NCBI GenBank assembly: GCA_964485795.1
Contig: CAZAJQ010000001.1
Location: 142,014 to 206,013, forward strand
Origin: an uncultured Gammaproteobacteria bacterium
Lineage (GTDB): Bacteria; Patescibacteriota; Patescibacteriia; VMEV01; CAZAJQ01
Direction of reading: 5' to 3'
DNA: 64,000 nucleotides
Made by a program: the position numbers and the translations under genes
Notes under the pieces: model-generated
Seen by the model: only the letters and a program-made list of their open reading frames with translations
Databases searched by the model: none
What the model was told of the DNA's origin: nothing
Shown: one piece after another, positions 9,579 to 61,951 of the stretch
Position numbering within the stretch: the first letter of the stretch is position 1
How the letters are laid out: each line of letters begins with the position of its first letter

Positions 9579-10046
9579 ATGTCAAAATTTCCTTCACGAA
9601 AAAATCCCACCCCGAAGTTAAGCGAAGCACATACTTCAGGGTTCACCCTAAAGTTAAGCGAAGCGCATACTTCAGGGTTCACCCTCATCGTCGCCGTCAT
9701 CATCATGACGGCCGCGTTCGTATTGATCGTGGTGCTGGGGGCAAAAAGCTTTCGATACACCAGTAGCGTCATCCAAGCTCAGATCGATCAGACGACGACA
9801 AATCTCCTCGCCGAATCATGCGCCCAGAAGGTGCTCCGCATGATCGTGGATAATTCAAATTACCCCGGAAATGAAACAATCACCAATCCCGAAGGAGATT
9901 GCACACTCTACCCGATAGCTCCCGGAGTGCCAGCCGATATCGATATTGAAGCGACAATACGCGATCATACCACGAGATTGCGCGTCACCATCGATTCAAA
10001 AACACCTCCCAATGTCATAAAATGGGAAAAATTGGAAAACTTTTAA
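9579..10046 (+). CDS. pilin-like / small membrane protein whose 5' region is built from a tandem hairpin repeat
   Basis: Its ATG lies 1 nt after the upstream stop. The N-terminal residues KLSEAHTSGFTL KLSEAHTSGFTL are encoded by two tandem copies of the 32 nt hairpin repeat. A hydrophobic helix (IVAVIIMTAAFVLIVVLG) follows but lacks E at +5. An alternative start at ATG 9711 would place the repeats in the intergenic region. Confidence 0.45.
   Translation: MSKFPSRKNPTPKLSEAHTSGFTLKLSEAHTSGFTLIVAVIIMTAAFVLIVVLGAKSFRYTSSVIQAQIDQTTTNLLAESCAQKVLRMIVDNSNYPGNETITNPEGDCTLYPIAPGVPADIDIEATIRDHTTRLRVTIDSKTPPNVIKWEKLENF
9609..9686 (+). repeat. two tandem copies of the 32 nt hairpin repeat CCCTGAAGTTAAGCGAAGCGCATACTTCAGGG (family A)
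   Basis: Near-identical adjacent copies, each able to form a 9 bp stem (CCCTGAAGT/ACTTCAGGG) with a 14 nt loop. The same element recurs at 10727, 20079 and 20521. Confidence 0.8.
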
Positions 10047-10630: not shown

Positions 10631-10726
10631 AACGAATTTATACGTTCATGCAAGACGATTTGACCGAAAGCCGTCTTTTTGTCAAAATCCCCCCACAGGC
10701 GATTTTTTTATTTTTTTGACTGAAAT

Positions 10727-10762
10727 CACCCTGAAGTTAAGCGAAGCGCATACTTCAGGGTA
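10727..10762 (+). repeat. single copy of the family A hairpin repeat, immediately upstream of tRNA-Arg
   Basis: ACCCTGAAGTTAAGCGAAGCGCATACTTCAGGGTA is identical to the consensus seen at 9609-9686. Confidence 0.8.
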
Positions 10763-10774
10763 TACCTTCTTTTG

Positions 10775-10846
10775 GCTCCTGTAGTTCAATGGATAGAACA
10801 CGGGTTTGCGGAGCCCGTGATCCAGGTTCGATTCCTGGCGGGAGCA
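10775..10846 (+). tRNA. tRNA-Arg (anticodon GCG, inferred)
   Basis: Manual cloverleaf: acceptor GCTCCTG/CGGGAGC, D-arm GTTC...GAAC, anticodon stem CGGGT/GCCCG with loop TTGCGGA, T-arm CCAGG TTCGATT CCTGG, discriminator A. The anticodon assignment was read by eye. Confidence 0.7.
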
Positions 10847-20071: not shown

Positions 20072-20078
20072 AAACGTT

Positions 20079-20150
20079 ACCCCTGCAGTAGAACGAAGCG
20101 CACACTGCAGGGTAAACCCCTGCAGTTAAACGATGCGCATACTGCAGGAT
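20079..20150 (+). repeat. two tandem variant copies of the family A hairpin repeat (CTGCAG variant)
   Basis: CCCTGCAGTAGAACGAAGCGCACACTGCAGGG and CCCTGCAGTTAAACGATGCGCATACTGCAGGA. The A-to-C change in the 5' arm is matched by a T-to-G change in the 3' arm, so the stem pairing is preserved. Confidence 0.75.
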
Positions 20151-20151
20151 T

Positions 20152-20475
20152 TCATGCGACAAATCTTAACCTCAAAACCAATCGAGACCCTGTTTTCTCA
20201 TGCAAATGAGCCAAAACTTCCGCTTCGCGCATTTTGATCTCCGAGGCGATCGACGAATTCTTCACGGATATCGCGAGACTTTGCTGACGGATATACCGCG
20301 CTTCGGCTTCTTTCGTCGCTTCTTGACCAAAAGTCTTGGCCAGCCATTTTTGAAAAACGTCCATCACCAGAAGCTTTTCCATATCTTCGCCAAGGGCATC
20401 GGTTTTCATCTTGCGCTTCAAAATATTTTTCAGAGAATCCATAGTCTTTGTTGCCAAGATGATTTCAGGTCTCAT
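20152..20475 (-). CDS. DUF721/DciA-like protein
   Basis: About 100 aa protein whose pattern (EKLLVMDVFQKW...SLAISVKNSSIASEIKMREAEVLAHL...RLVLRLRF) matches the DUF721 family usually found near replication/repair genes. Assigned from memory of the family pattern. Confidence 0.45.
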   Translation of the reverse strand: MRPEIILATKTMDSLKNILKRKMKTDALGEDMEKLLVMDVFQKWLAKTFGQEATKEAEARYIRQQSLAISVKNSSIASEIKMREAEVLAHLHEKTGSRLVLRLRFVA

Positions 20476-30508: not shown

Positions 30509-30538
30509 AGTACTCAGTACTCAGTGCTCAGTAGTCAG
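30509..30538 (+). repeat. heptamer tandem repeat (TACTCAG)x4
   Basis: AGTACTCAGTACTCAGTGCTCAGTAGTCAG between the glycosyltransferase start and the glyS stop. The same heptamer array occurs at 40077 and 51313. Confidence 0.75.
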
Positions 30539-34018: not shown

Positions 34019-34471
34019 ATGTCCATTCTCGCGGTCAACAAAAGAGCCCGTTATGATTATGAAATCCTTGAAACTCTTCAGGCCGGTTTGGCATTGCTCG
34101 GCCACGAGGTGAAATCAGCAAAATTGGGGCAAGTGAGTCTGAAAGGATCATATGTGACGATCCGAAACAACGAAGCCTATCTTCTCAATGCCCATATCGC
34201 GGCATATCGTTTTGCGTCACCCCTTGTCTCCTTGGATCCGGTGCGTACGAGAAAGCTCCTGCTCAAAAAATCCGAAATAAAAAAACTCATCGGCAAACAA
34301 AAAGAAAAAGGTCTTTCGCTTATTCCGATAAAGCTTTACACAAAAAAAAACCTTATCAAACTAGAGTACGGAGTCGGAAAGGGAATGAAAAAAAGCGATA
34401 AAAGCGAACGCAGCAAAAAAAGAAAAACCAACAACAACATCCGCCGGGAGATGAGTGTACGGAGGCGGTAA
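34019..34471 (+). CDS. smpB: SsrA-binding protein SmpB
   Basis: Strong match to the SmpB fold (ARYDYEILETLQAGLALLGHEVKS ... LLNAHIAAY ... RTRKLLLKKSEI) and a basic C-terminal tail. Confidence 0.9.
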   Translation: MSILAVNKRARYDYEILETLQAGLALLGHEVKSAKLGQVSLKGSYVTIRNNEAYLLNAHIAAYRFASPLVSLDPVRTRKLLLKKSEIKKLIGKQKEKGLSLIPIKLYTKKNLIKLEYGVGKGMKKSDKSERSKKRKTNNNIRREMSVRRR

Positions 34472-34785
34472 AAAGAGCCCGCCCTCCGTCATCCTCCGCT
34501 TACCGCCAAAGCCCTCCCCCCTTCTACGAATACGTGCGCTTGCCGCGAAGCCCCCCCCTCCGTCATCCTCCGCTGCGCTACGGATGACACCTCCCCTTGT
34601 CCAAGGGGAGGATAGAGTACGAAAGAGTTTCCTCCCCTTACACAAGGGGAGGTGCCCGAAGGGCGGAGGGGTGAGCTCCGTCGATAGGTGAAGCAGTTCC
34701 GCGAAGAGCGGAGGCCTGCCATCCAAAGTCTGCCTCAGACAGGGACAGTCTTGGGATGGTTGACTTTCCTCCCCTCTCCCTGTAT
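34472..34785 (+). repeat. GC-rich structured repeat cluster (family G), copy 1, between smpB and ssrA
   Basis: Contains hairpins CTCCCCTT(GTCC/ACAC)AAGGGGAG and GCCCGAAGGGC, and the GGAGGGGTGAGCTCCG module shared with loci at 55.4 kb and 61.4 kb. GC content is far above the local average. Confidence 0.8.
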
Positions 34786-34841
34786 AGTTTCCTTAATAAG
34801 CGCTGTGCTTATTGTTTTTTTTCGTTTCCTTGGAAACATTC

Positions 34842-35238
34842 GGGGATGTTTGGATTTGACGGAATGACTCGATAGGTTTCTATGCAAGACGAGCTCGCCA
34901 TGATGCTCGCAAATCTCCGTGGCACATTATAAGTGCAAACTTATTCGCAAAAGCAAAAGATGCCGTGAAAACTTTTTTTGCGGTACCAAGCTTCAGCATG
35001 GCTATTGCCTAAACGCATCGGCCCATCGCGGCTTTTGAGGATTCATAAGGAGCCCGCGGTGCAATATTCATGAATCTCAGGAAATATGTTCGTCACGCCA
35101 TATTCTCCGAAAATTTTGTGACTGTGATGCGGTCGTTTTGCTTTCTTTCTCAGATCGCATCAAGAATGAAAGAAAGCTACTCTTGAAGAAATAGAATTCT
35201 ATCCATTCCAGACGCGGGTTCGATTCCCGCCATCTCCA
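34842..35238 (+). ncRNA. ssrA: tmRNA (ssrA)
   Basis: 5' end GGGGATGTTTGGATTTGACGG closely parallels E. coli GGGGCTGATTCTGGATTCGACGG. 3' tRNA-like domain GGACGCGGGTTCGATTCCCGCCATCTCCA (T-arm plus acceptor 3' strand pairing with the 5' GGGGATG). Candidate tag frame from resume codon GCA at 34935 (preceded by AUAAGU, like E. coli AUAGUC) to TAA at 35010: ANLFAKAKDAVKTFFAVPSFSMAIA. A shorter tag AVPSFSMAIA is an alternative. Confidence 0.8.
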
Positions 35239-35282
35239 TTTTTCGCTCTTCGACGAAGAAGGGCTTTATAAATACTTTATCC

Positions 35283-40076: not shown

Positions 40077-40106
40077 AAGTTCTCAGCAGTCAGTACTCAG
40101 TTCTCA
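40077..40106 (+). repeat. heptamer (TACTCAG-type) repeat in the gap between the two VirB4 ORFs
   Basis: AAGTTCTCAGCAGTCAGTACTCAGTTCTCAG. The same short intergenic segment also contains the GAGAACTTA direct repeats. Confidence 0.6.
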
Positions 40107-40148
40107 GAAATAAGTTCTCAATGCTCGGCAGTGAGCTTGAAGATGGGG

Positions 40149-48760: not shown

Positions 48761-49025
48761 TAATCTATTAACACAGAGATGTCAAACACGCTTTTTTTGC
48801 CTGTAGTTAAGGCTTTTTCAGAGCATTTACTAAACAGATTTAAAACATTTTCATAATTTTGCAGCGCCGAAAAACTTTTCTCTCCTCTCTGACATATCAT
48901 TCCCCATATAATAAAATTCAAGATAAAAAAATAAGCGAGTCACGTGAGGTTTCTCTTCGCATCTGATACAATAAGGCAACATTCTCTTTTCCCTTCATGT
49001 ATGAAGATTTGGAATGGAGGAATCT

Positions 49026-50801
49026 ATGCACACCGCCACAGTCAACGCCATTCCGAACACGACGCAAAAAAGCTCGCTGCTTGAGCTTCTTTCGCGTCAC
49101 TTCGGCTATACGATGTTTCGGCAAAACCAGCAAGATATCATCGAGAGCATCCTCGCGGGAAAAAACACGGCGGTGATCATGCCCACGGGTGCCGGGAAAT
49201 CCCTGTGTTATCAGCTTCCGGCCATGATTTTGCCGCATCTCACCGTCGTCGTTTCTCCCCTCATCTCGCTGATGAAGGATCAGGTGGACAGTCTCAACGC
49301 ACGGGGAAATCGATCGACGTTTATCAACAGTTCCCTTTCGTATGCCGAACAAACGGCTCGACTCGACGCGACTCGGAGCGGATCGTTCAAGCTTCTCTAT
49401 GTCGCTCCCGAGCGATTCGGCAATCAAGAATTCCTCGCATCGCTCAAAACCATTCCCCTATCGCTTTTTGTGATCGACGAAGCGCATTGCATCTCCGAAT
49501 GGGGACATGATTTTCGCCCCTCCTATCTGCGGATCAAAGACGCCATCGGCGAACTGAAAACCGCGGGGCAGTCGTTTCCCGTCAGCGCATTGACGGCCAC
49601 CGCCACACCGGAAGTGAAGCGTGACATCATCAAACAGCTGGCTCTGGAAACCCCCCGCATCTTCGTGTCGGGATTTCGCCGCGACAATCTCCGGCTGGAA
49701 GTGAAGCGCACGTCGGCTTTCCAAAAAATCGATTATCTTCTGCCGGCTTTGCGAAGCGCGCAGGCCGACGGAAGCGCCATCATCTATGCCGGAACGCGAA
49801 AAAAAGTCGAGGAAACCGTCATGGTTTTGCGGGAATACGGCATACCAAGCGACGGATACCATGCCGGCATGGAAAACGAAGAACGAAAAAAAGTTCAAGA
49901 AGATTTTCTTACGGGAAAAACGAAGGTCATGGTGGCGACCAACGCTTTCGGCATGGGCATCGACAAGCCGGACATACGACTCGTCATACACCACGATATG
50001 CCCGGAACTCTCGAAAATTATTATCAGGAAATCGGACGCGCCGGTCGAGACGGGAAGCCGAGTCGATGCATCTTGCTCTCCAGCGCCGGAGATCGTTACC
50101 TGCGCGAATTTTTTCTTGCCGGAGAAAATCCCTCCCCTCAAACGATCAAAGAAGTGTACCATTTTCTCATCCGCGAACACAGCCGCCACAATCACGCTGC
50201 GACCGGCGAATCGACTCTCTACGTGACGGGCACGGACATAGCCGGCAGCGTATCCGATGAAATCAATGAAATGGCCATTTCCACGGCTCTCAAAATACTT
50301 GAAAAGGAAGGATATATCGAACGTCTCAGCGAAAAAGACAATCCCGCTTCCGCGACGCTACTCCGTCAACCCGAAGAAATCCTCGCGGCCGTCGGCAATC
50401 GCGCCAAAAAACAAATCGAAGCGATCCGCATTTTCGTCTCCAGCTACGGAGCGGCAAAAAGTCGAGAAATCCGATTTTCACTCGATGATGTCGCCTCACT
50501 CATGAACGTGAAAAAAAACTCCGTGCAAGCCGCGCTCAACGCCATGAAAAAAAATCATCTCATCGCGTATGAACCTCCCTTCCGAGGACGCGGCATCAAA
50601 ATGCTCAAAACCTCGGGGCTCAACATGAACTTTGAAGCTCTAGAAGAAAAACGCAAACGCGACTACGGCAAACTCGATCTCATGGAAGCCTACGCCCATC
50701 ACTCCGGCTGCCGGCACGCTTATATCCTCGAATATTTCGATGAAAAAAATATTCTGAGATCGTGCGGAAGCTGTGATAATTGTCTCATGAAATCGCTATG
50801 A
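49026..50801 (+). CDS. recQ: second RecQ-family helicase (helicase core plus RQC zinc/winged-helix region, no HRDC)
   Basis: MPTGAGKSLCYQLPA, VIDEAHCISEWGHDFRPSY, QEIGRAGRDG and a C-terminal Cys cluster (CRHAY...CGSCDNC). Start moved to the internal ATG 49026. Confidence 0.9.
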   Translation: MHTATVNAIPNTTQKSSLLELLSRHFGYTMFRQNQQDIIESILAGKNTAVIMPTGAGKSLCYQLPAMILPHLTVVVSPLISLMKDQVDSLNARGNRSTFINSSLSYAEQTARLDATRSGSFKLLYVAPERFGNQEFLASLKTIPLSLFVIDEAHCISEWGHDFRPSYLRIKDAIGELKTAGQSFPVSALTATATPEVKRDIIKQLALETPRIFVSGFRRDNLRLEVKRTSAFQKIDYLLPALRSAQADGSAIIYAGTRKKVEETVMVLREYGIPSDGYHAGMENEERKKVQEDFLTGKTKVMVATNAFGMGIDKPDIRLVIHHDMPGTLENYYQEIGRAGRDGKPSRCILLSSAGDRYLREFFLAGENPSPQTIKEVYHFLIREHSRHNHAATGESTLYVTGTDIAGSVSDEINEMAISTALKILEKEGYIERLSEKDNPASATLLRQPEEILAAVGNRAKKQIEAIRIFVSSYGAAKSREIRFSLDDVASLMNVKKNSVQAALNAMKKNHLIAYEPPFRGRGIKMLKTSGLNMNFEALEEKRKRDYGKLDLMEAYAHHSGCRHAYILEYFDEKNILRSCGSCDNCLMKSL

Positions 50802-51316: not shown

Positions 51317-51347
51317 GTACTGAACACAAGTACTCAGTACTCAGTAC
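51313..51347 (+). repeat. heptamer (TACTCAG) repeat forming a 9 bp hairpin, overlapping the exonuclease stop codon
   Basis: CTGAGTACT GAACACA AGTACTCAG TACTCAGTACG. Confidence 0.7.
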
Positions 51348-51371
51348 GCTGGAATCATTATCCGCCACTTC

Positions 51372-53111
51372 TCACTCCAAAACGGACAACACGTCATTAC
51401 CCTCACCGCGGATATCCTCACCCGTGAAACGATCTTTGGCGATGATTGTGACGTCTTCTACAAGCGGAAAAGGTTTATTGACTTGCGAGACTTTTTCGGG
51501 AGAAAACTCCACTTCAAAGGCCAGTCCCACGCGCGAACCGAAATTCACGTTTGGGAGGCTCCAGACGAGTTGACGGCTTTGCGCGTCAAAACGAATCTCA
51601 CCCCCGCCGGCCTTGCTTTGCCCCGTAAAACTCACCTGCGGCACCAACGTCGAACTTACCGCGACATTTTCAATGTCATTGGGAAACGATTCAAGCTCAA
51701 AGAATATCCAATACTTGGTCTTTTTCCCGACCTCGGGAGGCAATGCGCCGCGCCCGAGCTGTTCTCCGTTCAGGCTGAAATATCGGGCATTCCCAAGGAT
51801 GCCGACCACACTGCTAAGCTTGAAAAAAATCGGCGTCGCCGGAATCTTCCACCGTGCGGGTTCTCCTTCCTTCGAATACGACACATGGCTTGAAAGCCCA
51901 ATCTCCTTTCCCGAAAATCGTAAAACCTCATCGGCTTTGAATGTTCCCGTATTCAAGGTGAACGCACCGGAAATTGTCTCGCCGACGGCCACATCTCGCA
52001 ATACAAACACTGATTTCGCCGCATCGCTTCGCAATGCGACACCTTCCGGCGTTTCAAAACTCATCAACGGATGGGAATCAAAAGAGATTTCAACGTTTTT
52101 CAGCGTTTTATTTTCATTGTTTCGCAAGGTAAAATTGAGAATTTGACTTTGACCGGAACTCAAAGTGCGAGTTTGCGGAAACAATTCAAACACCACGTTC
52201 GGATACCGTATGGGAACCGTAAAAACTTTTTCTTCCTGCTTTTGATTGCGGCCGTTTTCAAAAATCAAGCTTTGAAAAATAAACTGTTTTTCTTTATCGC
52301 CTTGGGCGTCCATGCGACCCCGTATGCGAATTTCACCTTTTTCGCGCTGATCAAGCGCGTCGATGATCCATCCTTCATCCGTGAGAAGCGGCTCGGAATG
52401 CAACACTTCAAAGGCCGGCGGGAAAACGGGGAAAATGCGGAAATTTTTTTGCGAAAATTGAGACGAAGTGTTTTCATAGCCGATGGAAATGTCAAACTCC
52501 TGCTTATCCACCAATTCCGAAGGCATGTTCACGTCAAAGGAAAACACGGAAGACGTCAGAGAAAAAATGACGAAGAAAAGTTTTTTTTCAAAATGAATGG
52601 AGCGCGGATCGGTTTTGTAATTCAAAAAAGCTCGCAAATGCTGATCCTTGCCGACATCGCCGATCATTTTCCCGGAAATCGTGAATTGCCCTCGCTGCCC
52701 GGGATCAAGCGTTCCGAGAGGGTAGCTGTTTTTTTCGCCGATAACCGATTCCGGCGCGGAGCGAATCGAAGTAAAGCCTTCAGGAAATAAAAATTCAATA
52801 AACGCGTCATGCAAGATCGTATCGGCGTTTTCATTGGCATATGAAACTTCAAACGCCACTTCTCCCCCGCTTTGCGCTTCGGAGGTCAAAAGTCGCAAGG
52901 ACGCATCCACGCGCTCGGCCACGAGAGCCCGGCCGTACCAGCCGAAAAGAAAAACGATAAACGCCGACAACAGCACGATGATGGTCAATAAAAAAACATC
53001 CGCAAAAAGATGCTTGGATCCGTGGATGTGATCCGGATGATAATGCCGATGATATCTTTTTTTGAAGTAGGCTTTCGAAAATGCAAACATAAAAAATAAT
53101 CTTTCTCTCAC
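51372..53111 (-). CDS. hypothetical membrane-anchored extracellular protein (579 aa)
   Basis: Basic N-terminus, one transmembrane helix (VFLLTIIVLLSAFIVFLFGWY), then beta-rich repeats. No catalytic motif. Confidence 0.5.
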   Translation of the reverse strand: MRERLFFMFAFSKAYFKKRYHRHYHPDHIHGSKHLFADVFLLTIIVLLSAFIVFLFGWYGRALVAERVDASLRLLTSEAQSGGEVAFEVSYANENADTILHDAFIEFLFPEGFTSIRSAPESVIGEKNSYPLGTLDPGQRGQFTISGKMIGDVGKDQHLRAFLNYKTDPRSIHFEKKLFFVIFSLTSSVFSFDVNMPSELVDKQEFDISIGYENTSSQFSQKNFRIFPVFPPAFEVLHSEPLLTDEGWIIDALDQREKGEIRIRGRMDAQGDKEKQFIFQSLIFENGRNQKQEEKVFTVPIRYPNVVFELFPQTRTLSSGQSQILNFTLRNNENKTLKNVEISFDSHPLMSFETPEGVALRSDAAKSVFVLRDVAVGETISGAFTLNTGTFKADEVLRFSGKEIGLSSHVSYSKEGEPARWKIPATPIFFKLSSVVGILGNARYFSLNGEQLGRGALPPEVGKKTKYWIFFELESFPNDIENVAVSSTLVPQVSFTGQSKAGGGEIRFDAQSRQLVWSLPNVNFGSRVGLAFEVEFSPEKVSQVNKPFPLVEDVTIIAKDRFTGEDIRGEGNDVLSVLE

Positions 53112-55243
53112 TTCCCCTCGATCCGAAACACGTCTCTGGTCATGACGACGATATCCAGCATACCGTCATGATCCATATCCGACAAGGCCAAAGTGATTTC
53201 TGACGTGCCGTTGTTTCCAAAAGCTTGAAAGGATTCGCCGCGATGGCCGTCCATGTCAAAAACCGCGACTTGGGAATCGCCTCCGAGAACGGGACTGGCG
53301 ACGATTTCATCACGGCCGTCGCCGTCAAGATCGCCGGACACGACATGCACTCCGCCGCGAAACGTCGAGTCAAACGCGAAAAATCCGGCGTTCACCGCGC
53401 GTCCGTCCGGTCTGAACATGCGCACATGAGGCCCGCCCCCGACACCCGCGCCCGTGATGATTTCTTTTTGCCCGTCGCCGTCAACGTCTCCCACGGCGAC
53501 ATTCACCCCTCCGCGGAAATTTTTCTCATACGCGAAAAAACCGTCCGAAAGCAATTTTCCGCCGGTATTGAAAATCCTCACATGCGGGCCGCCGCCCTCA
53601 CCCGCGCCGGTAACGATCTCAAGGGTTCCGTCTCCTTCAAGATCGGCGACCACAAAATGCACCTCGCCGGTATAAGCTTCTCCGTACGGAAAAAATCGAA
53701 GCGTCAGCTCCCCGTTTTCTTCAAAGATGCTGATGGCGCCGTTTTGCGCCGTGAGGATTTCTTTGATGCCGTCAAAATCAATGTCCTGCTTGAGCACGGC
53801 TTCGTCTTCTTTTTGCGTCGATTCATAGGCGAAAAAACCGTTGCGAATCACCTCTCCGGACGCGTCGAACACTCTGGCAAAGGCGCCGTTTTCAAACACC
53901 GATGACGCGATTTCATTGAGAGGGTGCAAAAGCAGTATGCCGTCTTGGCCGTTGAGCGTCAGCTCGGAAACGATGCGTCCGTCATTGATATCCGGATCTT
54001 GACCGCCTCGTAATTTTTCATGGTCATAGGGCAAGGCGATGACGCGTTCGTCATAGGTGGAATTCACGAAAACGCTTCCATAGTCAAAATCGCGTCCCCA
54101 TACCCCCCTGCCAGAGGCAGGCAGGCTTCCGGAGGCATCCTTGCCGAGTGGAAACATGTTTTTCGCATCCGTTGTCGGAAATCCCAAATTCGCGTCATAC
54201 TCGTCATACCGCCACACATAGGTGCGGTCTTTGGGTCCGTTGTCAAAATTAAAATACGCATTTCCGAGCAAGGAGCTGCCCAAGGCGTATCTCATGGCGC
54301 GATAATCGTCGAATTTTCCGGAATCATTGACATCAGCGTTGAAAAAAACGGCTCTGGGACTTTTTCCAAAGCTGTCTTTTTCGATCTCTCGATAATTTTT
54401 CATGGCGCCGTTCCAACCGCCGCGCTCAAGATAGGGAAAATCCTCAAAACCTCGGCCATTGAGATGATCGGTGTAATAATTTCCAATGGTATTGCCGATG
54501 AGCAGGTATTCGTCTCCCACGATTTCGCGCATTTTCTTGAAAAAACCTTGATGACCTTCTTGCCAACGCCGGTCGATGAATGCGGCTTCATCGGCTTTTC
54601 CGTCATGGTCGATATCGATGCCTGCGGCCGACCACGATATCGAGTCCCATACCACGTCAAAAAAGATGCCGTCCCACAGCCCGCTTCCAAGCATTTGAAC
54701 CGCAAGATAGGTCGCGAGAAAATCGCCGTAAGTTTGTCCCTCCTTGTTTTTTCCGCTGAGATTCATAACCACGTTTTTTGGCCAAAGGCTGATTTCCTTA
54801 TTTTCCGCCGTGTTCAGATACCACTCCTCCGACATTTTTGAAGCCAAATCATGGTAGATTCCCTCGCGATCGATTTCGACGTCTTTGAGCCCGTACTTGG
54901 GAAACTCGGTGAGATTGAAATACGCCAAGAGTATGATATCGGGGTTTTTCTTCCGAAGCGCGGTCAAAAGATCCTTTCCCACTTCTTGGGCGGCGGGATG
55001 GAAAATCGCCACATCATATTTTGAAAATTCATCGGCAAGGTCGGCTCCGAGGTGATACTGGGAGCTGGAAAGGTACATCATGCCCGTACGTGGAAAATCG
55101 TGTTTTACTATCGACTCTTTCCAGTTTTGCGCAAACGCTGGGGCCATTCCCTGCGGGAAACTCGCGGAAACGAAAAAAACGCCCAGAAAAATGGGGCGAA
55201 GGAGTTTCATGAAAAGGCTGTTTTCACGGAAAAAAGAGATCAT
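53108..55243 (-). CDS. secreted protein with C-terminal FG-GAP/VCBS-type repeats and an N-terminal putative glycoside-hydrolase-like domain
   Basis: Signal peptide and four calcium-binding-type repeats (DGDGTLEIVTGAGEGGGPHVRIF, DGDGQKEIITGAGVGGGPHVRMF, DGDGRDEIVASPV, DHDGMLDIVV). The N-terminal approximately 400 aa are TIM-barrel-like; that assignment is weak. Confidence 0.6.
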   Translation of the reverse strand: MISFFRENSLFMKLLRPIFLGVFFVSASFPQGMAPAFAQNWKESIVKHDFPRTGMMYLSSSQYHLGADLADEFSKYDVAIFHPAAQEVGKDLLTALRKKNPDIILLAYFNLTEFPKYGLKDVEIDREGIYHDLASKMSEEWYLNTAENKEISLWPKNVVMNLSGKNKEGQTYGDFLATYLAVQMLGSGLWDGIFFDVVWDSISWSAAGIDIDHDGKADEAAFIDRRWQEGHQGFFKKMREIVGDEYLLIGNTIGNYYTDHLNGRGFEDFPYLERGGWNGAMKNYREIEKDSFGKSPRAVFFNADVNDSGKFDDYRAMRYALGSSLLGNAYFNFDNGPKDRTYVWRYDEYDANLGFPTTDAKNMFPLGKDASGSLPASGRGVWGRDFDYGSVFVNSTYDERVIALPYDHEKLRGGQDPDINDGRIVSELTLNGQDGILLLHPLNEIASSVFENGAFARVFDASGEVIRNGFFAYESTQKEDEAVLKQDIDFDGIKEILTAQNGAISIFEENGELTLRFFPYGEAYTGEVHFVVADLEGDGTLEIVTGAGEGGGPHVRIFNTGGKLLSDGFFAYEKNFRGGVNVAVGDVDGDGQKEIITGAGVGGGPHVRMFRPDGRAVNAGFFAFDSTFRGGVHVVSGDLDGDGRDEIVASPVLGGDSQVAVFDMDGHRGESFQAFGNNGTSEITLALSDMDHDGMLDIVVMTRDVFRIEGK

Positions 55244-55406
55244 ATCTAAACCTAAGGCAAGGGAAATTTAATGCAAAATTGAAAATAAATTATACAATAA
55301 AATAATAAAAAAAGCAACACTCTTCGAAAATATACAAAAATAACTGAAAAAAAGAAGGATATTGAAAGAAAATTATACCATAGAAATGAGGTTTTCATTA
55401 TTTCAC

Positions 55407-55690
55407 CGCTTACAAACGATGCCGCCACTCCGCCTACCGACGAAGCACCACCCCTGCCAGAGGCAGGCCTCCGTAAAGGAGCGCTCGTTTCGAAGCAAGG
55501 TATATGCCGCTTATCGCCGAAGCACTACCCCTCTGCCCTTCGGGCATCTCCCCTTGTCCAAGGGGAGGTGGCCGGAGGCCGGAGGGGTGAGCTCCGTGAA
55601 CATGGAGCTTACCTTGTCCGAACCGGAGGCCTGCCTCTGGCAGGGGTGAGGCTTCGTCGATAAACGGGGAGTGTCCCGTCGATACGCGGA
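55407..55690 (+). repeat. GC-rich structured repeat element (family G), copy 2, bounded by 33 bp terminal inverted repeats
   Basis: Left arm CGAAGCACCACCCCTGCCAGAGGCAGGCCTCCG. Right arm is the reverse complement of CGAAGCCTCACCCCTGCCAGAGGCAGGCCTCCG. Internal module CGAAGCACTACCCCTCTGCCCTTCGGGCATCTCCCCTTGTCCAAGGGGAGGTGGCCGGAGGCCGGAGGGGTGAGCTCCGTGAACATGGAGCTTAC. Confidence 0.8.
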
Positions 55691-61315: not shown

Positions 61316-61420
61316 AATAGATTTTTTTTATAAAATGAACATTTACAAACTTTTGAACTATGCTTTTTATCATATTTTTATGATTTCGTCAAATTCAGCT
61401 CGTCTAAGATCATCTATCGG

Positions 61421-61852
61421 TGAAGCAACACACTGCTTACCATCGAAGCCCCACCCCTCTGCCTTTCAGGCATCTCCCCTTACACAAGGGGAGGTGGCCG
61501 CAGGCCGGAGGGGTGAGTTTCGTGAACATGGGAGCTTAACGTATCCAGGCCGGAGGGGTGAGTTTCGTGAACATGGGAGCTTAACGTGTCCCGAGGTTGC
61601 GCTCCATGGATGAGTGCCTTTTCAACGTTCACTCCCCTGCTTGCCACCGAAGCCCTACCCCTCTGCCTTTCAGGCATCTCCCCTTGTCCAAGGGGAGAAA
61701 TTCATAGTGGTACGGGTTTCCTCCCCTTACACAAGGGGAGGTGGCCGCAGGCCCGGAGGGGTGAGTTTCGTAAACATGGGAGCTTAACGTATCCAGGCCG
61801 GAGGGGTGAGTTTCGTGAACATGGGGATTACCATGTCCCCGGAGGGGTGTGC
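61421..61852 (+). repeat. GC-rich structured repeat cluster (family G), copy 3, containing an internal approximately 200 bp segmental duplication and 43 nt tandem sub-repeats
   Basis: Two consecutive copies of the module CGAAGCCC(C/T)ACCCCTCTGCCTTTCAGGCATCTCCCCTT(ACAC/GTCC)AAGGGGAG...GGCCGCAGGCC GGAGGGGTGAGTTTCGTGAACATGGGAGCTTAACGT, each followed by a second GGCCGGAGGGGTGAGTTTCGTGAACATGG unit. Confidence 0.8.
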
Positions 61853-61951
61853 TAAACATTTACATGTTTCCTCGTAGTCGTGACTCGTCCTAAATAAAAA
61901 CACCGATATTCCTCCAAATACCGGTGCTAATGATTTTACTCAAAAAAAAAT

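Follow-up and report, generated by a model that had tools for sequence, protein, structure and literature searches.

Probable kin of BoxC/PIT elements: clustered triplex-type repeat units in a Parcubacteria genome and related units flanking DUF559 endonuclease genes

The repeats known as BoxC, PIT or TMECO have been recognised since the 1990s and are intergenic elements with the sequence layout of an intrastrand triplex (Hoyne et al. 2000; Holder et al. 2015, PMC4666352). A class II triplex is defined by the succession, on a single strand, of a pyrimidine arm, a purine arm and a reverse-Hoogsteen block composed of purines or T (PMC4666352). For TMECO, whose consensus is CCCTCNCCC-N3-6-GGGNGAGGG-N3-GGGNGAGGG, triplex formation by oligonucleotides was observed in vitro by CD, NMR and melting, and the elements, reported in 262 proteobacterial genomes, are intergenic, occur in inverted pairs and are linked to instability (PMC4666352). 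In vivo, Holder et al. detected no DMS protection of TMECO (PMC4666352). The published searches confined the loops to 1–6 nt (ITxF) or 0–10 nt (Hoyne et al.), and the published work on BoxC/PIT/TMECO describes no connection with mobile elements and makes no mention of DUF559.

Here, we analyse a stretch of 64,000 nucleotides, referred to as the window, from a small-genome Parcubacterium, which widens the host range of such repeats well beyond the Proteobacteria. Three loci in the window are, in our judgement, probably clusters of a non-coding, DNA-level repeat that is built from inverted pairs of triplex-type units and is akin to BoxC/PIT. A preliminary description of this DNA had announced a new family: While there is indeed no Rfam match and no GTAG-tagged REP, the class is already known as BoxC/PIT/TMECO, and the novelty lies in the variant.

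Three composite loci and their units

The three intergenic loci were found at about 34.5, 55.4 and 61.4 kb, as had been claimed. Their GC contents of 0.62, 0.63 and 0.56 (loci 1, 2 and 3) bear out the description of a GC-rich module, whereas the window as a whole, which had been called AT-rich, is only moderately so (GC 0.459). Folding z-scores amount to −5.4, −11.8 and −5.3, repeat families D1, D4, D5 and D8 connect the three loci with one another, and the exact hairpin CTCCCCTT-N4-AAGGGGAG occurs six times against an expectation of 0.01. The features are as follows, with Y and R denoting the pyrimidine and purine arms and the strand given where one applies:

34472..34759: repeat locus 1, a composite palindrome flanked by smpB and the tmRNA promoter
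34538..34553: family-specific outer arm GCTTGCCGCGAAGC of locus 1, with GCGAAGC (coordinates by eye, approximate)
34554..34611, minus strand: candidate triplex unit of locus 1, with Y CCTCCCCTT, loop GGAC, R AAGGGGAGG, a 28-nt hairpin linker and tail GGAGGGGG (motif regex)
34631..34672, plus strand: candidate triplex unit of locus 1, with Y at 34631-34639, R at 34644-34652, linker TGCCCGAAGGGC at 34653-34664 and tail GGAGGGGT at 34665-34672; 8/8 triads
34673-34695: partner arm GAGCTCCGTCGATAGGTGAAGC of locus 1, after the right-hand tail (by eye, approximate)
55406..55690: repeat locus 2, a nested palindrome of 285 nt (MFE −181 kcal/mol, z −11.8, GC 0.63)
55430..55473: left outer inverted-repeat arm of locus 2, a degenerate unit, partner of 55624-55667
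55527..55568, minus strand: candidate triplex unit of locus 2, with R AAGGGGAGA, linker TGCCCGAAGGGC and tail AGAGGGGT; 8/8 triads
55547..55588, plus strand: candidate triplex unit of locus 2, with R AAGGGGAGG, linker TGGCCGGAGGCC and tail GGAGGGGT; 8/8 triads
55624..55667: right outer inverted-repeat arm of locus 2 (inverted repeat I1)
61410..61870: repeat locus 3, with four units in an alternating array plus three orphan tail-and-arm segments (ends approximate)
61453..61494, minus strand: candidate triplex unit of locus 3, with linker TGCCTGAAAGGC and tail AGAGGGGT
61473..61514, plus strand: candidate triplex unit of locus 3, with linker TGGCCGCAGGCC
61657..61698, minus strand: candidate triplex unit of locus 3
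61720..61762, plus strand: candidate triplex unit of locus 3, with linker TGGCCGCAGGCCC, longer by one base

The basic unit occupies about 42 nt of a single strand and reads CCTCCCCTT-N4-AAGGGGAGG-(TG-mini-hairpin-C)-GGAGGGGT: The pyrimidine arm CCTCCCCTT is followed by a loop of 4 nt, the complementary purine arm AAGGGGAGG, a linker and the purine tail GGAGGGGT, and the linker is itself a mini-hairpin composed of TG, a stem, a GNA loop, the second half of the stem and C. The window contains eight complete units, four per strand. In all eight the tail mirrors the purine arm at 8/8 positions, and each unit yields 8/8 allowed triads (G.G:C, A.A:T or T.A:T). For the 34554..34611 unit, the linker of which has a folding energy of −11.5 kcal/mol, the mirror relation was established by direct reading. 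Arm and tail vary in concert: AAGGGGAGG goes with GGAGGGGT and the variant AAGGGGAGA with AGAGGGGT, as in the 55527..55568 unit, where an R arm ending in GA covaries with a tail beginning with AG.

In this genome the units form inverted pairs, one unit per DNA strand, which share or abut a central hairpin. It is this arrangement that creates the appearance of an ACCCCTC...GAGGGGT helix around three hairpins, as which the module had been described. The supposed single fold is in fact one 42-nt unit that occurs twice, in inverted orientation, and ACCCCTC and GAGGGGT are not the two strands of a helix: each is the mirror repeat, or putative third strand, of a unit, and the two belong to opposite DNA strands. 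Lineage-specific arms (GCTTACCnnCGAAGC) extend the unit pairs to composite palindromes of 285–460 nt. In locus 1, two central hairpins are separated by a 19-nt spacer (34612-34630), and inverted repeat I3 pairs 34546-34562 with 34664-34680. In locus 2, the 55527..55568 (−) and 55547..55588 (+) units have the central hairpin in common, and the terminal inverted repeats, previously given as 33 bp, are present as arms of 44 nt with 89% complementarity. In locus 3, the 61473..61514 and 61657-61698 units form a tail-to-tail pair around 142 nt (I1 of this locus), and orphan tails lie at 61552, 61800 and 61841. A tandem duplication of about 200 bp had been proposed here; what we found instead of a clean duplication is a 45-nt tandem (×2, 61501-61591) together with segmental repeats at offsets of 204 and 248 nt, with an additional hairpin and spacer in the second copy. 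The hairpin variants quoted in the preliminary description can be read in the sequence, but hairpin 1 of copy 2 is TGCCC-TTC-GGGCA (13 nt) rather than TGCCC-TTCG-GGGCA, and copy 1 lacks hairpin 1 and has GTCATCC...GGATGAC in its place.

The genomic surroundings were compared with those in relatives. Copy 1 does lie between smpB (stop at 34471) and the tmRNA gene (start at 34842), followed by a promoter-like TTGACT-17-TATAGT at 34760-34788. The smpB-ssrA spacer thus measures 370 nt, compared with 0 and 133 nt in motif-less relatives with ~60% SmpB identity; copy 1 represents an extra ~240–370 nt relative to the spacers of L248 and L246 and is inserted relative to the spacer of these distant relatives. 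Copies 2 and 3 are located between a terminator-like hairpin of minus-strand genes and the next gene: Locus 2 abuts such a hairpin at 55726->55697 and locus 3 adjoins one at 61928->61899, both on the minus strand. By consensus scan, no promoter-like site is present within copies 2 and 3, and one lies ~100 nt outside copy 2. At its edges (TTTCA on one side, AAAAAAAA on the other), copy 2 shows no direct repeat that would indicate a target-site duplication; copies 1 and 3 have no sharply defined ends.

Hairpin pairing and the mirror tail

Pairing was analysed by motif regex, MAFFT and pair counts. In 22 units from many taxa, the third (linker) hairpin is 93.6% paired, compared with 64% in shuffled sequences, none of which (0/500) reach this value; slid controls are 27–44% paired, and the covariation score is 0.67 versus 0.155. 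The pairing-preserving variation that had been noted among the three copies is therefore real and holds, with strong cross-phylum support, in the larger alignment. Nearly all of 50 distinct linker sequences fold. As their lengths (10–28 nt) are not multiples of three, the element is non-coding, in line with the earlier claim, and the reading as a coding repeat is out.

The second regularity concerns the tail. In single units of other taxa it has no Watson–Crick partner and is a mirror of the purine arm. Across all fetched loci, which were partly chosen by the motif itself, 327 of the 774 informative hairpin-strands have a mirror 7-mer of their own hairpin ≤50 nt downstream; a direct copy is found in 88, shuffled windows give a mean of 17 (maximum 28) and windows swapped between arm classes a mean of 88 (maximum 117). 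Set out class by class, the arms produce a mirror matrix with a clear diagonal, and the mode is 8 triads family-wide. Opposite A:T pairs, the third-strand base is A in 331 and T in 135 cases, these being the two that the purine motif permits. A tail that mirrors the purine arm follows the rule of the antiparallel purine-motif triplex and identifies the element as a repeat of the class II intrastrand-triplex type; the block order and the 8/8 mirror triads of this class are present in all eight window units.

How such a unit might act can be outlined as follows. Once a strand is single-stranded or extruded, the pyrimidine and purine arms would pair as a hairpin. The tail would then fold back on this hairpin, antiparallel to the purine arm, with formation of G.G:C, A.A:T and T.A:T triads, and the resulting fold would be a class II purine-motif intrastrand triplex. 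Judging from the mirror relation of arm and tail in the window units, which supplies the direct evidence, we infer that they may adopt this fold in vivo. Structures of this type could stall replication, which may have given rise to the local duplications and nestings of copies 2 and 3, and recognition or cutting of the folded unit by a DUF559 nuclease may be what spreads it.

DUF559 genes and the competing explanations

In many phyla, units of this kind flank genes for DUF559 (Vsr-fold) endonucleases as inverted repeats. A DUF559 gene lies within a few hundred nt in 18 of 157 motif-selected loci. Among 79 loci picked by the protein alone, hairpins have a density of 1.59 per kb near the DUF559 gene and 0.18 per kb farther off, and 24 of the 79 display a unit upstream and an inverted copy downstream of the gene; as the first set was chosen by motif and many loci of the second are homologous alphaproteobacterial sites, none of these counts represents independent events. 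The first cross-phylum examples came from a scan of a genome collection with the central hairpin alone, in which mostly unrelated hairpins were among the matches listed. Unit pairs enclose 25–53 nt, a DUF559 gene or the decayed remains of one (as in L147), and no other gene was found enclosed. In the alphaproteobacterial cassettes the tail lies 6–18 nt ahead of the DUF559 start (by eye); a reading as a Shine–Dalgarno mimic (AAGGGGAGGTG) was discarded, since it leaves the inverted downstream copy and the gene-less pairs unexplained. The unit-adjacent proteins match 3HRL (E 1e-29) and, distantly, the catalytic domain of I-Bth0305I (E 2e-4). In E. coli, ycjD, present in 3375 of 5426 genomes, is positioned 168 nt from published TMECO no. 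9. Array copy number differs between strains in a related metagenomic locus, and in a gut-metagenome locus family that was compared for an allele without DUF559 (L157 versus L142), the contig ends within the array.

The window itself and the 10 kb upstream of it contain no DUF559 gene, and no description of an association between DUF559 and repeats was found in the searchable literature. Moreover, orientations differ: The window pairs are mostly head-to-head with the tails outermost, whereas DUF559 cassettes are tail-to-tail with the tails beside the gene. Consequently, a simple origin as a deleted cassette fits only the 61473-61698 pair. We nonetheless suspect that the gene-less pairs of the window are non-autonomous relatives of the DUF559-endonuclease cassettes. 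A broader proposal is put forward tentatively, as possible rather than probable: DUF559 nucleases (Vsr-fold PD-(D/E)XK) would be the missing partner enzymes of the intrastrand-triplex repeats, including BoxC/PIT/TMECO of E. coli, with the gene framed by inverted units as the autonomous form, the gene-less pairs as its non-autonomous offspring and the folded hairpin-triplex as the structure that is recognised or cut, in a REPIN-RAYT-like or homing-like manner, across Proteobacteria, Bacteroidota, Bacillota, Armatimonadota and Patescibacteria. The association of the units with DUF559 genes in an inverted-repeat arrangement is strong, crosses phyla and includes ycjD beside TMECO, and it offers a testable handle on the mechanism.

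Since MDA and mis-assembly can generate long perfect palindromes, the loci might be chimeric artefacts of assembly or amplification. The chance of this is practically negligible: An independent NCBI assembly (L158, GCA_016204025.1) has copy 1 without a single base difference, contigs of separate sequencing runs extend into copies 1 and 3, and the unit architecture recurs in hundreds of unrelated contigs. That short-read contigs of other runs break within these two copies (Logan contigs at 61796, in locus 3) is expected where repeats are true. A structured non-coding RNA (sRNA or cis-regulatory element) in which an enclosing helix and three hairpins meet in a four-way junction would account for the strong predicted folds (z −5 to −12) and for the covariation of the stems, which is real, and copy 1 could be transcribed as the 3' UTR of smpB. 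To this reading we give very little credence. With 271 Watson–Crick and 9 G–T pairs, the stems show neither the wobble nor the strand asymmetry that would be the signature of an RNA; 24 of 28 triloops are of the GNA type, which is typical of DNA mini-hairpins. The module is a perfect DNA palindrome with units on both strands rather than in an orientation consistent with transcription from a promoter to a terminator of its own, and copies 2 and 3 lie past terminator-like hairpins with no promoter-like site inside. Rfam at the gathering score returned only tmRNA and tRNAs in the window and nothing on the motif in 20 related loci; at E ≤ 10 the window loci yielded only noise, for instance miRNA hairpins. 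Finally, purine-motif triplexes are stated to be unable to form in RNA (PMC4666352), so that the mirror geometry of the unpaired tails makes a DNA element the more likely. Of the earlier suggestion of selection on structure in an RNA or a structured DNA element, the selection for pairing and the DNA alternative survive.

Mobility of an ordinary kind deserves more weight but still appears unlikely. Here, the repeat would be a MITE or a REP/BIME-type element moved by a DDE or Y1/RAYT transposase encoded elsewhere in the genome, and both the triplex layout and the DUF559 genes would be incidental. The 44-nt terminal inverted repeats of copy 2, the clustered intergenic loci with alternating orientation, the strain-variable array of the related metagenomic locus and the breaking of assemblies at the copies all suit such an element. 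The 5' end of REP palindromes, however, is marked by a conserved tetranucleotide (GTAG or CGTC) that the units lack, and no target-site duplication is seen at the edges of copy 2. Neither the window nor 30 kb of annotated sequence in L158 and L241 yielded a transposase. With 64 kb plus 10 kb of this genome covered, no Y1 (HUH) RAYT gene appeared in the annotated parts, and no IS was found. Furthermore, the sequence of hairpin and tail is conserved in at least five phyla, whereas REPs and MITEs are lineage-specific; the mirror covariation calls for a structural explanation, and DUF559 is the sole gene enclosed by unit pairs. Integron attC sites, IS200/IS605 ends, retrons and CRISPR were set aside, as the defining gene or sequence box is lacking. 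Distinctly unlikely is a DNA signal of benefit to the host, namely replication pausing or priming, nucleoid-protein binding or insulation of intergenic transcription. The positions just behind terminators and ahead of promoters and the retention of copy 1 in two assemblies speak for it, and PIT elements stop DNA polymerase in vitro (PMC4666352). Yet the same spacer does without the element in relatives, earlier work found PIT elements without in vivo effect and without promoter or terminator activity in E. coli (PMC4666352), and three loci per ~74 kb, with no further copy in the 10 kb upstream of the window, are few, while their messy duplication and nesting is typical of selfish repeats. The reading as clustered, BoxC/PIT-related DNA repeats consequently remains the one that we prefer.

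Comparison with known systems

Like the BoxC/PIT/TMECO elements, the window units consist of a pyrimidine arm, a loop, a purine arm, a second loop and a mirror tail of purines or T; both are G/C-rich with 8–9 triads, strictly intergenic, multi-copy and without strand bias, often form closely spaced inverted pairs and are tied to local rearrangement. They differ in host (a Parcubacterium of the Patescibacteria versus Proteobacteria) and in the stem, as the window's CCTCCCCTT/AAGGGGAGG/GGAGGGGT departs from the TMECO consensus CCCTCNCCC/GGGNGAGGG/GGGNGAGGG. A further difference from TMECO is that the two members of a window pair have one hairpin in common and that palindromic arms are added to the pair. 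For its second loop the window unit has a mini-hairpin of 12, 13 or 28 nt, where TMECO has 3 nt; a loop of 12–28 nt might disfavour triplex folding. Measured against the published limits, which are search criteria and not structural ones, loop 1 (4 nt) falls inside and loop 2 outside both. The published census of triplex repeats is therefore probably an underestimate. In practical terms, short-read assemblies of CPR genomes break at these repeats, which also create spurious ORFs and could pass for structured RNAs.

MITEs such as Correia, RUP and Nezha resemble the window loci in their terminal inverted repeats, small size, AT-rich intergenic sites and nested copies, and they also have gene-less derivatives beside gene-bearing versions; in the window, by contrast, no target-site duplication was seen at copy 2 and no DDE transposase parent was found. 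With the Vsr/EDxHD homing endonucleases (I-Bth0305I, PDB 3R3P), DUF559 shares small free-standing nuclease genes of patchy presence, but DUF559 genes have no intron or intein context, and their role in moving the repeats is a putative one. The overall layout also resembles that of REP/BIME and REPIN-RAYT systems: Short GC-rich palindromes form intergenic clusters of alternating orientation, inverted doublets give long hairpins, and a single gene is flanked by inverted repeats, with DUF559 in the place of RAYT. In contrast to these systems, the window units carry no GTAG/CGTC tag, and the search revealed no Y1/HUH transposase; the protein that accompanies the units is a PD-(D/E)XK nuclease of the Vsr fold, the unit possesses a mirror third strand, and its core sequence crosses phyla.

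Layout and surroundings of the three loci

The three GC-rich loci reported in the preliminary description (34472-34759, 55406-55690 and 61410-61870, here copies 1, 2 and 3) are real: direct-repeat families link 34.6, 55.5 and 61.5 kb, and the hairpin CTCCCCTT-N4-AAGGGGAG has six exact occurrences in the window against 0.01 expected. Their GC content is 56-63% compared with 45.9% in the whole window, and their folding z-scores against shuffled sequences are -5.4, -11.8 and -5.3 for copies 1, 2 and 3, respectively. The loci are not assembly artefacts, because an independent assembly of the same population (GCA_016204025.1, Parcubacteria group bacterium) matches 24019-44471, copy 1 included, with only 18 mismatches, none of them within the repeat, and because other, short-read contigs end inside copies 1 and 3. 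All 18 mismatches of this 20,453-nt stretch sit in 83 nt at the smpB 3′ end (34363-34445), where two Logan short-read contigs also differ from the window; in the SmpB C-terminal tail they replace about 10 of the final 36 residues (KSDKSERSKKRKTNNNIRR against KIDKRERIKKRETDRTMRG). The tract stops 26 nt short of the stop codon, beside the left edge of copy 1, and could reflect strain variation, or recombination or repair beside the repeat.

Copy 1 lies between smpB and the tmRNA gene, as had been claimed, and a promoter-like TTGACT-17-TATAGT is found downstream of it.

Genes adjoining copy 1
34019-34471: smpB, immediately left of copy 1
34842-35241: tmRNA gene, right of copy 1

The smpB-tmRNA spacer measures 370 nt here, whereas two Parcubacteria-like relatives (about 60% SmpB identity) without the motif have spacers of 0 nt and 133 nt; because these relatives are distant, the comparison shows gain of copy 1, not recent mobility. 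No further copies were found in the 10 kb upstream of the window, and no target-site duplication is visible at copy 2. In a distant relative (L246, 3000-3600), a stretch of tandem repeats, each about 120 nt and partly N-masked, lies downstream of the tmRNA gene and ahead of a 23S_rRNA_IVP (four-helix bundle) gene.

Copy 2 is flanked by two minus-strand ORFs and adjoins a minus-strand terminator-like hairpin, and copy 3 is placed likewise. All hairpin variants described earlier were found in the sequence, except that hairpin 1 of copy 2 reads TGCCC-TTC-GGGCA; copy 1 differs in having another, longer hairpin 1 and two central hairpins. The terminal inverted repeats of copy 2 exist but measure 44 nt at 89%, not 33 bp, and the copy resembles one pair nested within a degenerate pair. 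Copy 3, an array with duplications, combines a 45-nt tandem with segmental repeats at offsets of 204 and 248 nt and is not a clean 200-bp tandem. An exact 18-mer of the copy 2 outer inverted repeat, CCCCTGCCAGAGGCAGGC, recurs at 54105-54122 in a GHL15/FG-GAP gene (ORF 53108-55243), where it encodes LPASGRG.

The window holds other repeats as well. A second small hairpin family, CACCCTGAAGT-TAAGCGAAGCGCAT-ACTTCAGGGT, whose loop carries the DNA mini-hairpin motif GCGAAGC, has five copies at three loci (9607-9686, 10726-10769 and 20078-20158), one of them 5 nt before tRNA-Arg (10775-10846); a strain contig (L242) departs from the window at 10760, inside this copy, and has a Fic gene in place of a NUDIX gene. 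A 7-nt tandem repeat, AGTACTC / AGTTCTC, forms short runs at 30509-30537, 40078-40134 and 51329-51357. ORF 156-2021, which has RecQ-type helicase domains, and ORF 49014-50801 share DNA stretches 71-89% identical (987-1175 / 49929-50117; 552-598 / 49473-49519), a similarity from which we infer that they are probably paralogues.

Unit anatomy and the mirror tail

Palindrome analysis resolves the module, formerly drawn as an enclosing helix around three hairpins, into a single unit present twice in inverted orientation, as in copy 2, where 55527-55556 pairs with 55559-55588. Each unit of about 42 nt comprises a pyrimidine arm, a 4-nt loop, a purine arm, a mini-hairpin linker and a purine tail. 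Among the matches listed, it occurs as a single copy in Alphaproteobacteria, Bacteroidota, Bacillota, Armatimonadota and several Patescibacteria lineages, and also in 37 metagenome contigs, with the cross-taxon form CCTCCCC(T/C)-loop-GGGGAGG-TG-[hairpin]-C-GGAGGGG. The linker between the conserved blocks varies freely in both sequence and length (50 distinct versions of 10-28 nt) but is nearly always self-complementary, with a mean consecutive-pair run of 5.2 versus 2.8 in shuffles. In a 22-sequence alignment, 93.6% of the linker cells are paired versus 64% in shuffles (reached by 0 of 500) and 27-44% in slid controls, four of five pairs show double-sided changes, and the covariation score is 0.67 versus 0.155. 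These linker statistics, in which the relatives give far more support than the window alone, therefore bear out the claim that structure is under selection, pairing being kept across variants; a coding repeat is excluded by the linker lengths. GNA makes up 24 of the 28 triloop linkers and is reportedly, from work by Hirao and co-workers, the loop of very stable DNA mini-hairpins such as GCGAAGC.

In single units the tail GGAGGGGT is without a Watson-Crick partner; it is the purine arm AAGGGGAGG read backwards rather than reverse-complemented. This mirror relation was assessed on every polypyrimidine/polypurine hairpin in all fetched loci.

Mirror tails among 774 informative hairpin-strands
Own-arm mirror within 50 nt downstream: 327
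Direct copy of the arm (control): 88
Shuffled windows (control): mean 17 (max 28)
Windows swapped between arm classes (control): mean 88 (max 117)

Tabulated class by class, the counts form a clear diagonal: arms with the mirror GGAAGAG, for instance, have it in 50% of cases and other patterns in at most 8%. The 327 tailed hairpins, a partly motif-selected sample, include 171 with a structured and 143 with a short linker. Antiparallel purine-motif triplexes are built from the triads G.G:C, A.A:T and T.A:T; opposite A:T pairs the tail base is A in 331 and T in 135 cases. The window contains eight units, four per strand, each with 8/8 allowed triads, and arm and tail co-vary (AAGGGGAGA with AGAGGGGT, AAGGGGAGG with GGAGGGGT). 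Given this mirror relation and the complete triads of each unit, each strand of the former enclosing helix is predicted to serve as the third strand of a triplex unit, the two units lying on opposite DNA strands.

The preliminary description had left the choice between an RNA and a structured DNA element. Five points favour action at the DNA level: the purine-motif geometry; stems that are nearly all Watson-Crick (271 versus 9 G-T) and show no strand preference; units on both strands; the position of copies 2 and 3 directly past terminators; and the lack of an Rfam match at the window loci or in 20 related loci. A scan of the elements found no promoter-like site within copies 2 and 3. Copy 1 may have an RNA role as the smpB 3′ UTR; nothing requires such a role.

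Association with DUF559 genes

The most interesting lead, and a directly testable one, is an association with genes of the DUF559 endonuclease family (PF04480). Such a gene adjoins the motif in one fetched locus (L022), and in 18 of 157 motif-selected loci, which come from several phyla, tblastn places DUF559 within a few hundred nucleotides of the hairpins. Against selection bias, 80 loci were fetched by DUF559 protein alone: a hairpin of this kind lies within 350 nt of the gene in 39 of 79, and hairpin density is 1.59 per kb near the gene versus 0.18 per kb farther off. The hairpin copies up- and downstream of DUF559 form inverted repeats of 43-103 nt, and the full layout [hairpin-linker-tail] - DUF559 - [tail′-linker-hairpin] is present in 24 loci, which are not independent because many are homologous alphaproteobacterial sites. 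Tail-to-tail unit pairs in the motif-selected loci enclose 25-53 nt, a DUF559 gene or a truncated DUF559, and nothing else. Within the window, tblastn finds no DUF559 and a six-frame profile search gives a best E of 0.13; the pairs are head-to-head whereas those of DUF559 cassettes are tail-to-tail, with one exception (61473-61514 with 61657-61698, enclosing 142 nt).

In E. coli K-12, no. 9 of the triplex repeat TMECO (Holder Table 1; 1351239-1351204) lies 168 nt downstream of ycjD, a DUF559 gene. Holder et al. (PMC4666352) describe no connection with mobile elements, and the terms DUF559, endonuclease and ycjD do not appear in their paper; no description of a repeat-DUF559 link was found in the literature searched. 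The DUF559 profile has a match in PDB 3HRL and a distant one in the catalytic domain of I-Bth0305I, a homing endonuclease with which, together with Vsr, DUF559 has been grouped (PMC3424549).

Further observations concern these neighbourhoods. In L249 (E. coli K-12 1351204-1351760) and L250, a duplicated ycjD 3′ end surrounds a C-rich/G-rich piece, CCCTCTCCC...GAGGGGG. Of 5426 complete E. coli genomes, 3375 carry the ycjD-TMECO segment; inspection of one such genome (H16) showed fabI adjoined instead by an RND efflux locus (TetR regulator, adaptor, permease, outer-membrane subunit). In gut-metagenome loci with the same flanks (L142 1654-2772 with L130, L149, L133 and L157), the number of near-identical 123-nt [unit + inverted unit] repeats behind the DUF559 gene is 0, 2 or 5, differences that may reflect strain copy-number variation or assembly collapse. 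In L165, L172, L187 and L056, the triplex tail GGAGGGG(G) stands 6-18 nt before the DUF559 start codon, the Shine-Dalgarno position, so that unit folding, if transcribed, might also gate nuclease translation.

Proposed mechanism and comparison with known triplex repeats

The unit sequences follow the logic of a hairpin combined with a purine-motif triplex and include a structurally conserved mini-hairpin linker; the units are paired into palindromes and sited in non-coding gaps. Each unit would fold into a triplex on single-stranded or extruded DNA. Folded units could impede polymerases, as is reported for PIT elements in vitro (PMC4666352), and promote slippage and breakage, which might in turn account for the duplicated and nested structures of this window and for the variable arrays elsewhere, unless the latter reflect assembly collapse. 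More speculatively, DUF559 nucleases might recognise the folded unit and drive its spread, gene-less pairs being non-autonomous copies; we consider such a nuclease-driven mechanism possible but less likely than not.

Class II intrastrand triplexes have been described for E. coli BoxC / PIT / TMECO (Holder et al. 2015, PMC4666352, citing Hoyne et al. 2000). TMECO, with the consensus CCCTCNCCC-N3-6-GGGNGAGGG-N3-GGGNGAGGG, has 23 copies in MG1655 and 3610 across 262 proteobacterial genomes; it is always intergenic, without strand bias, and includes five inverted pairs. Its triplex was shown in vitro by CD and NMR, and it is associated with local rearrangement, with no function assigned (PMC4666352). 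The window repeat is probably a DNA-level intrastrand-triplex repeat too, with the same defining geometry but a different sequence, and its second loop is a 12-28 nt mini-hairpin, beyond the loop limits of the two published searches. Of the novelty first claimed, the absence of a matching Rfam family holds, but the element would belong to a known, poorly understood class of DNA repeat and is not a new RNA. What is new here is the sequence, the hairpin-bearing loop, the shared-hairpin pairs and the Patescibacteria host.
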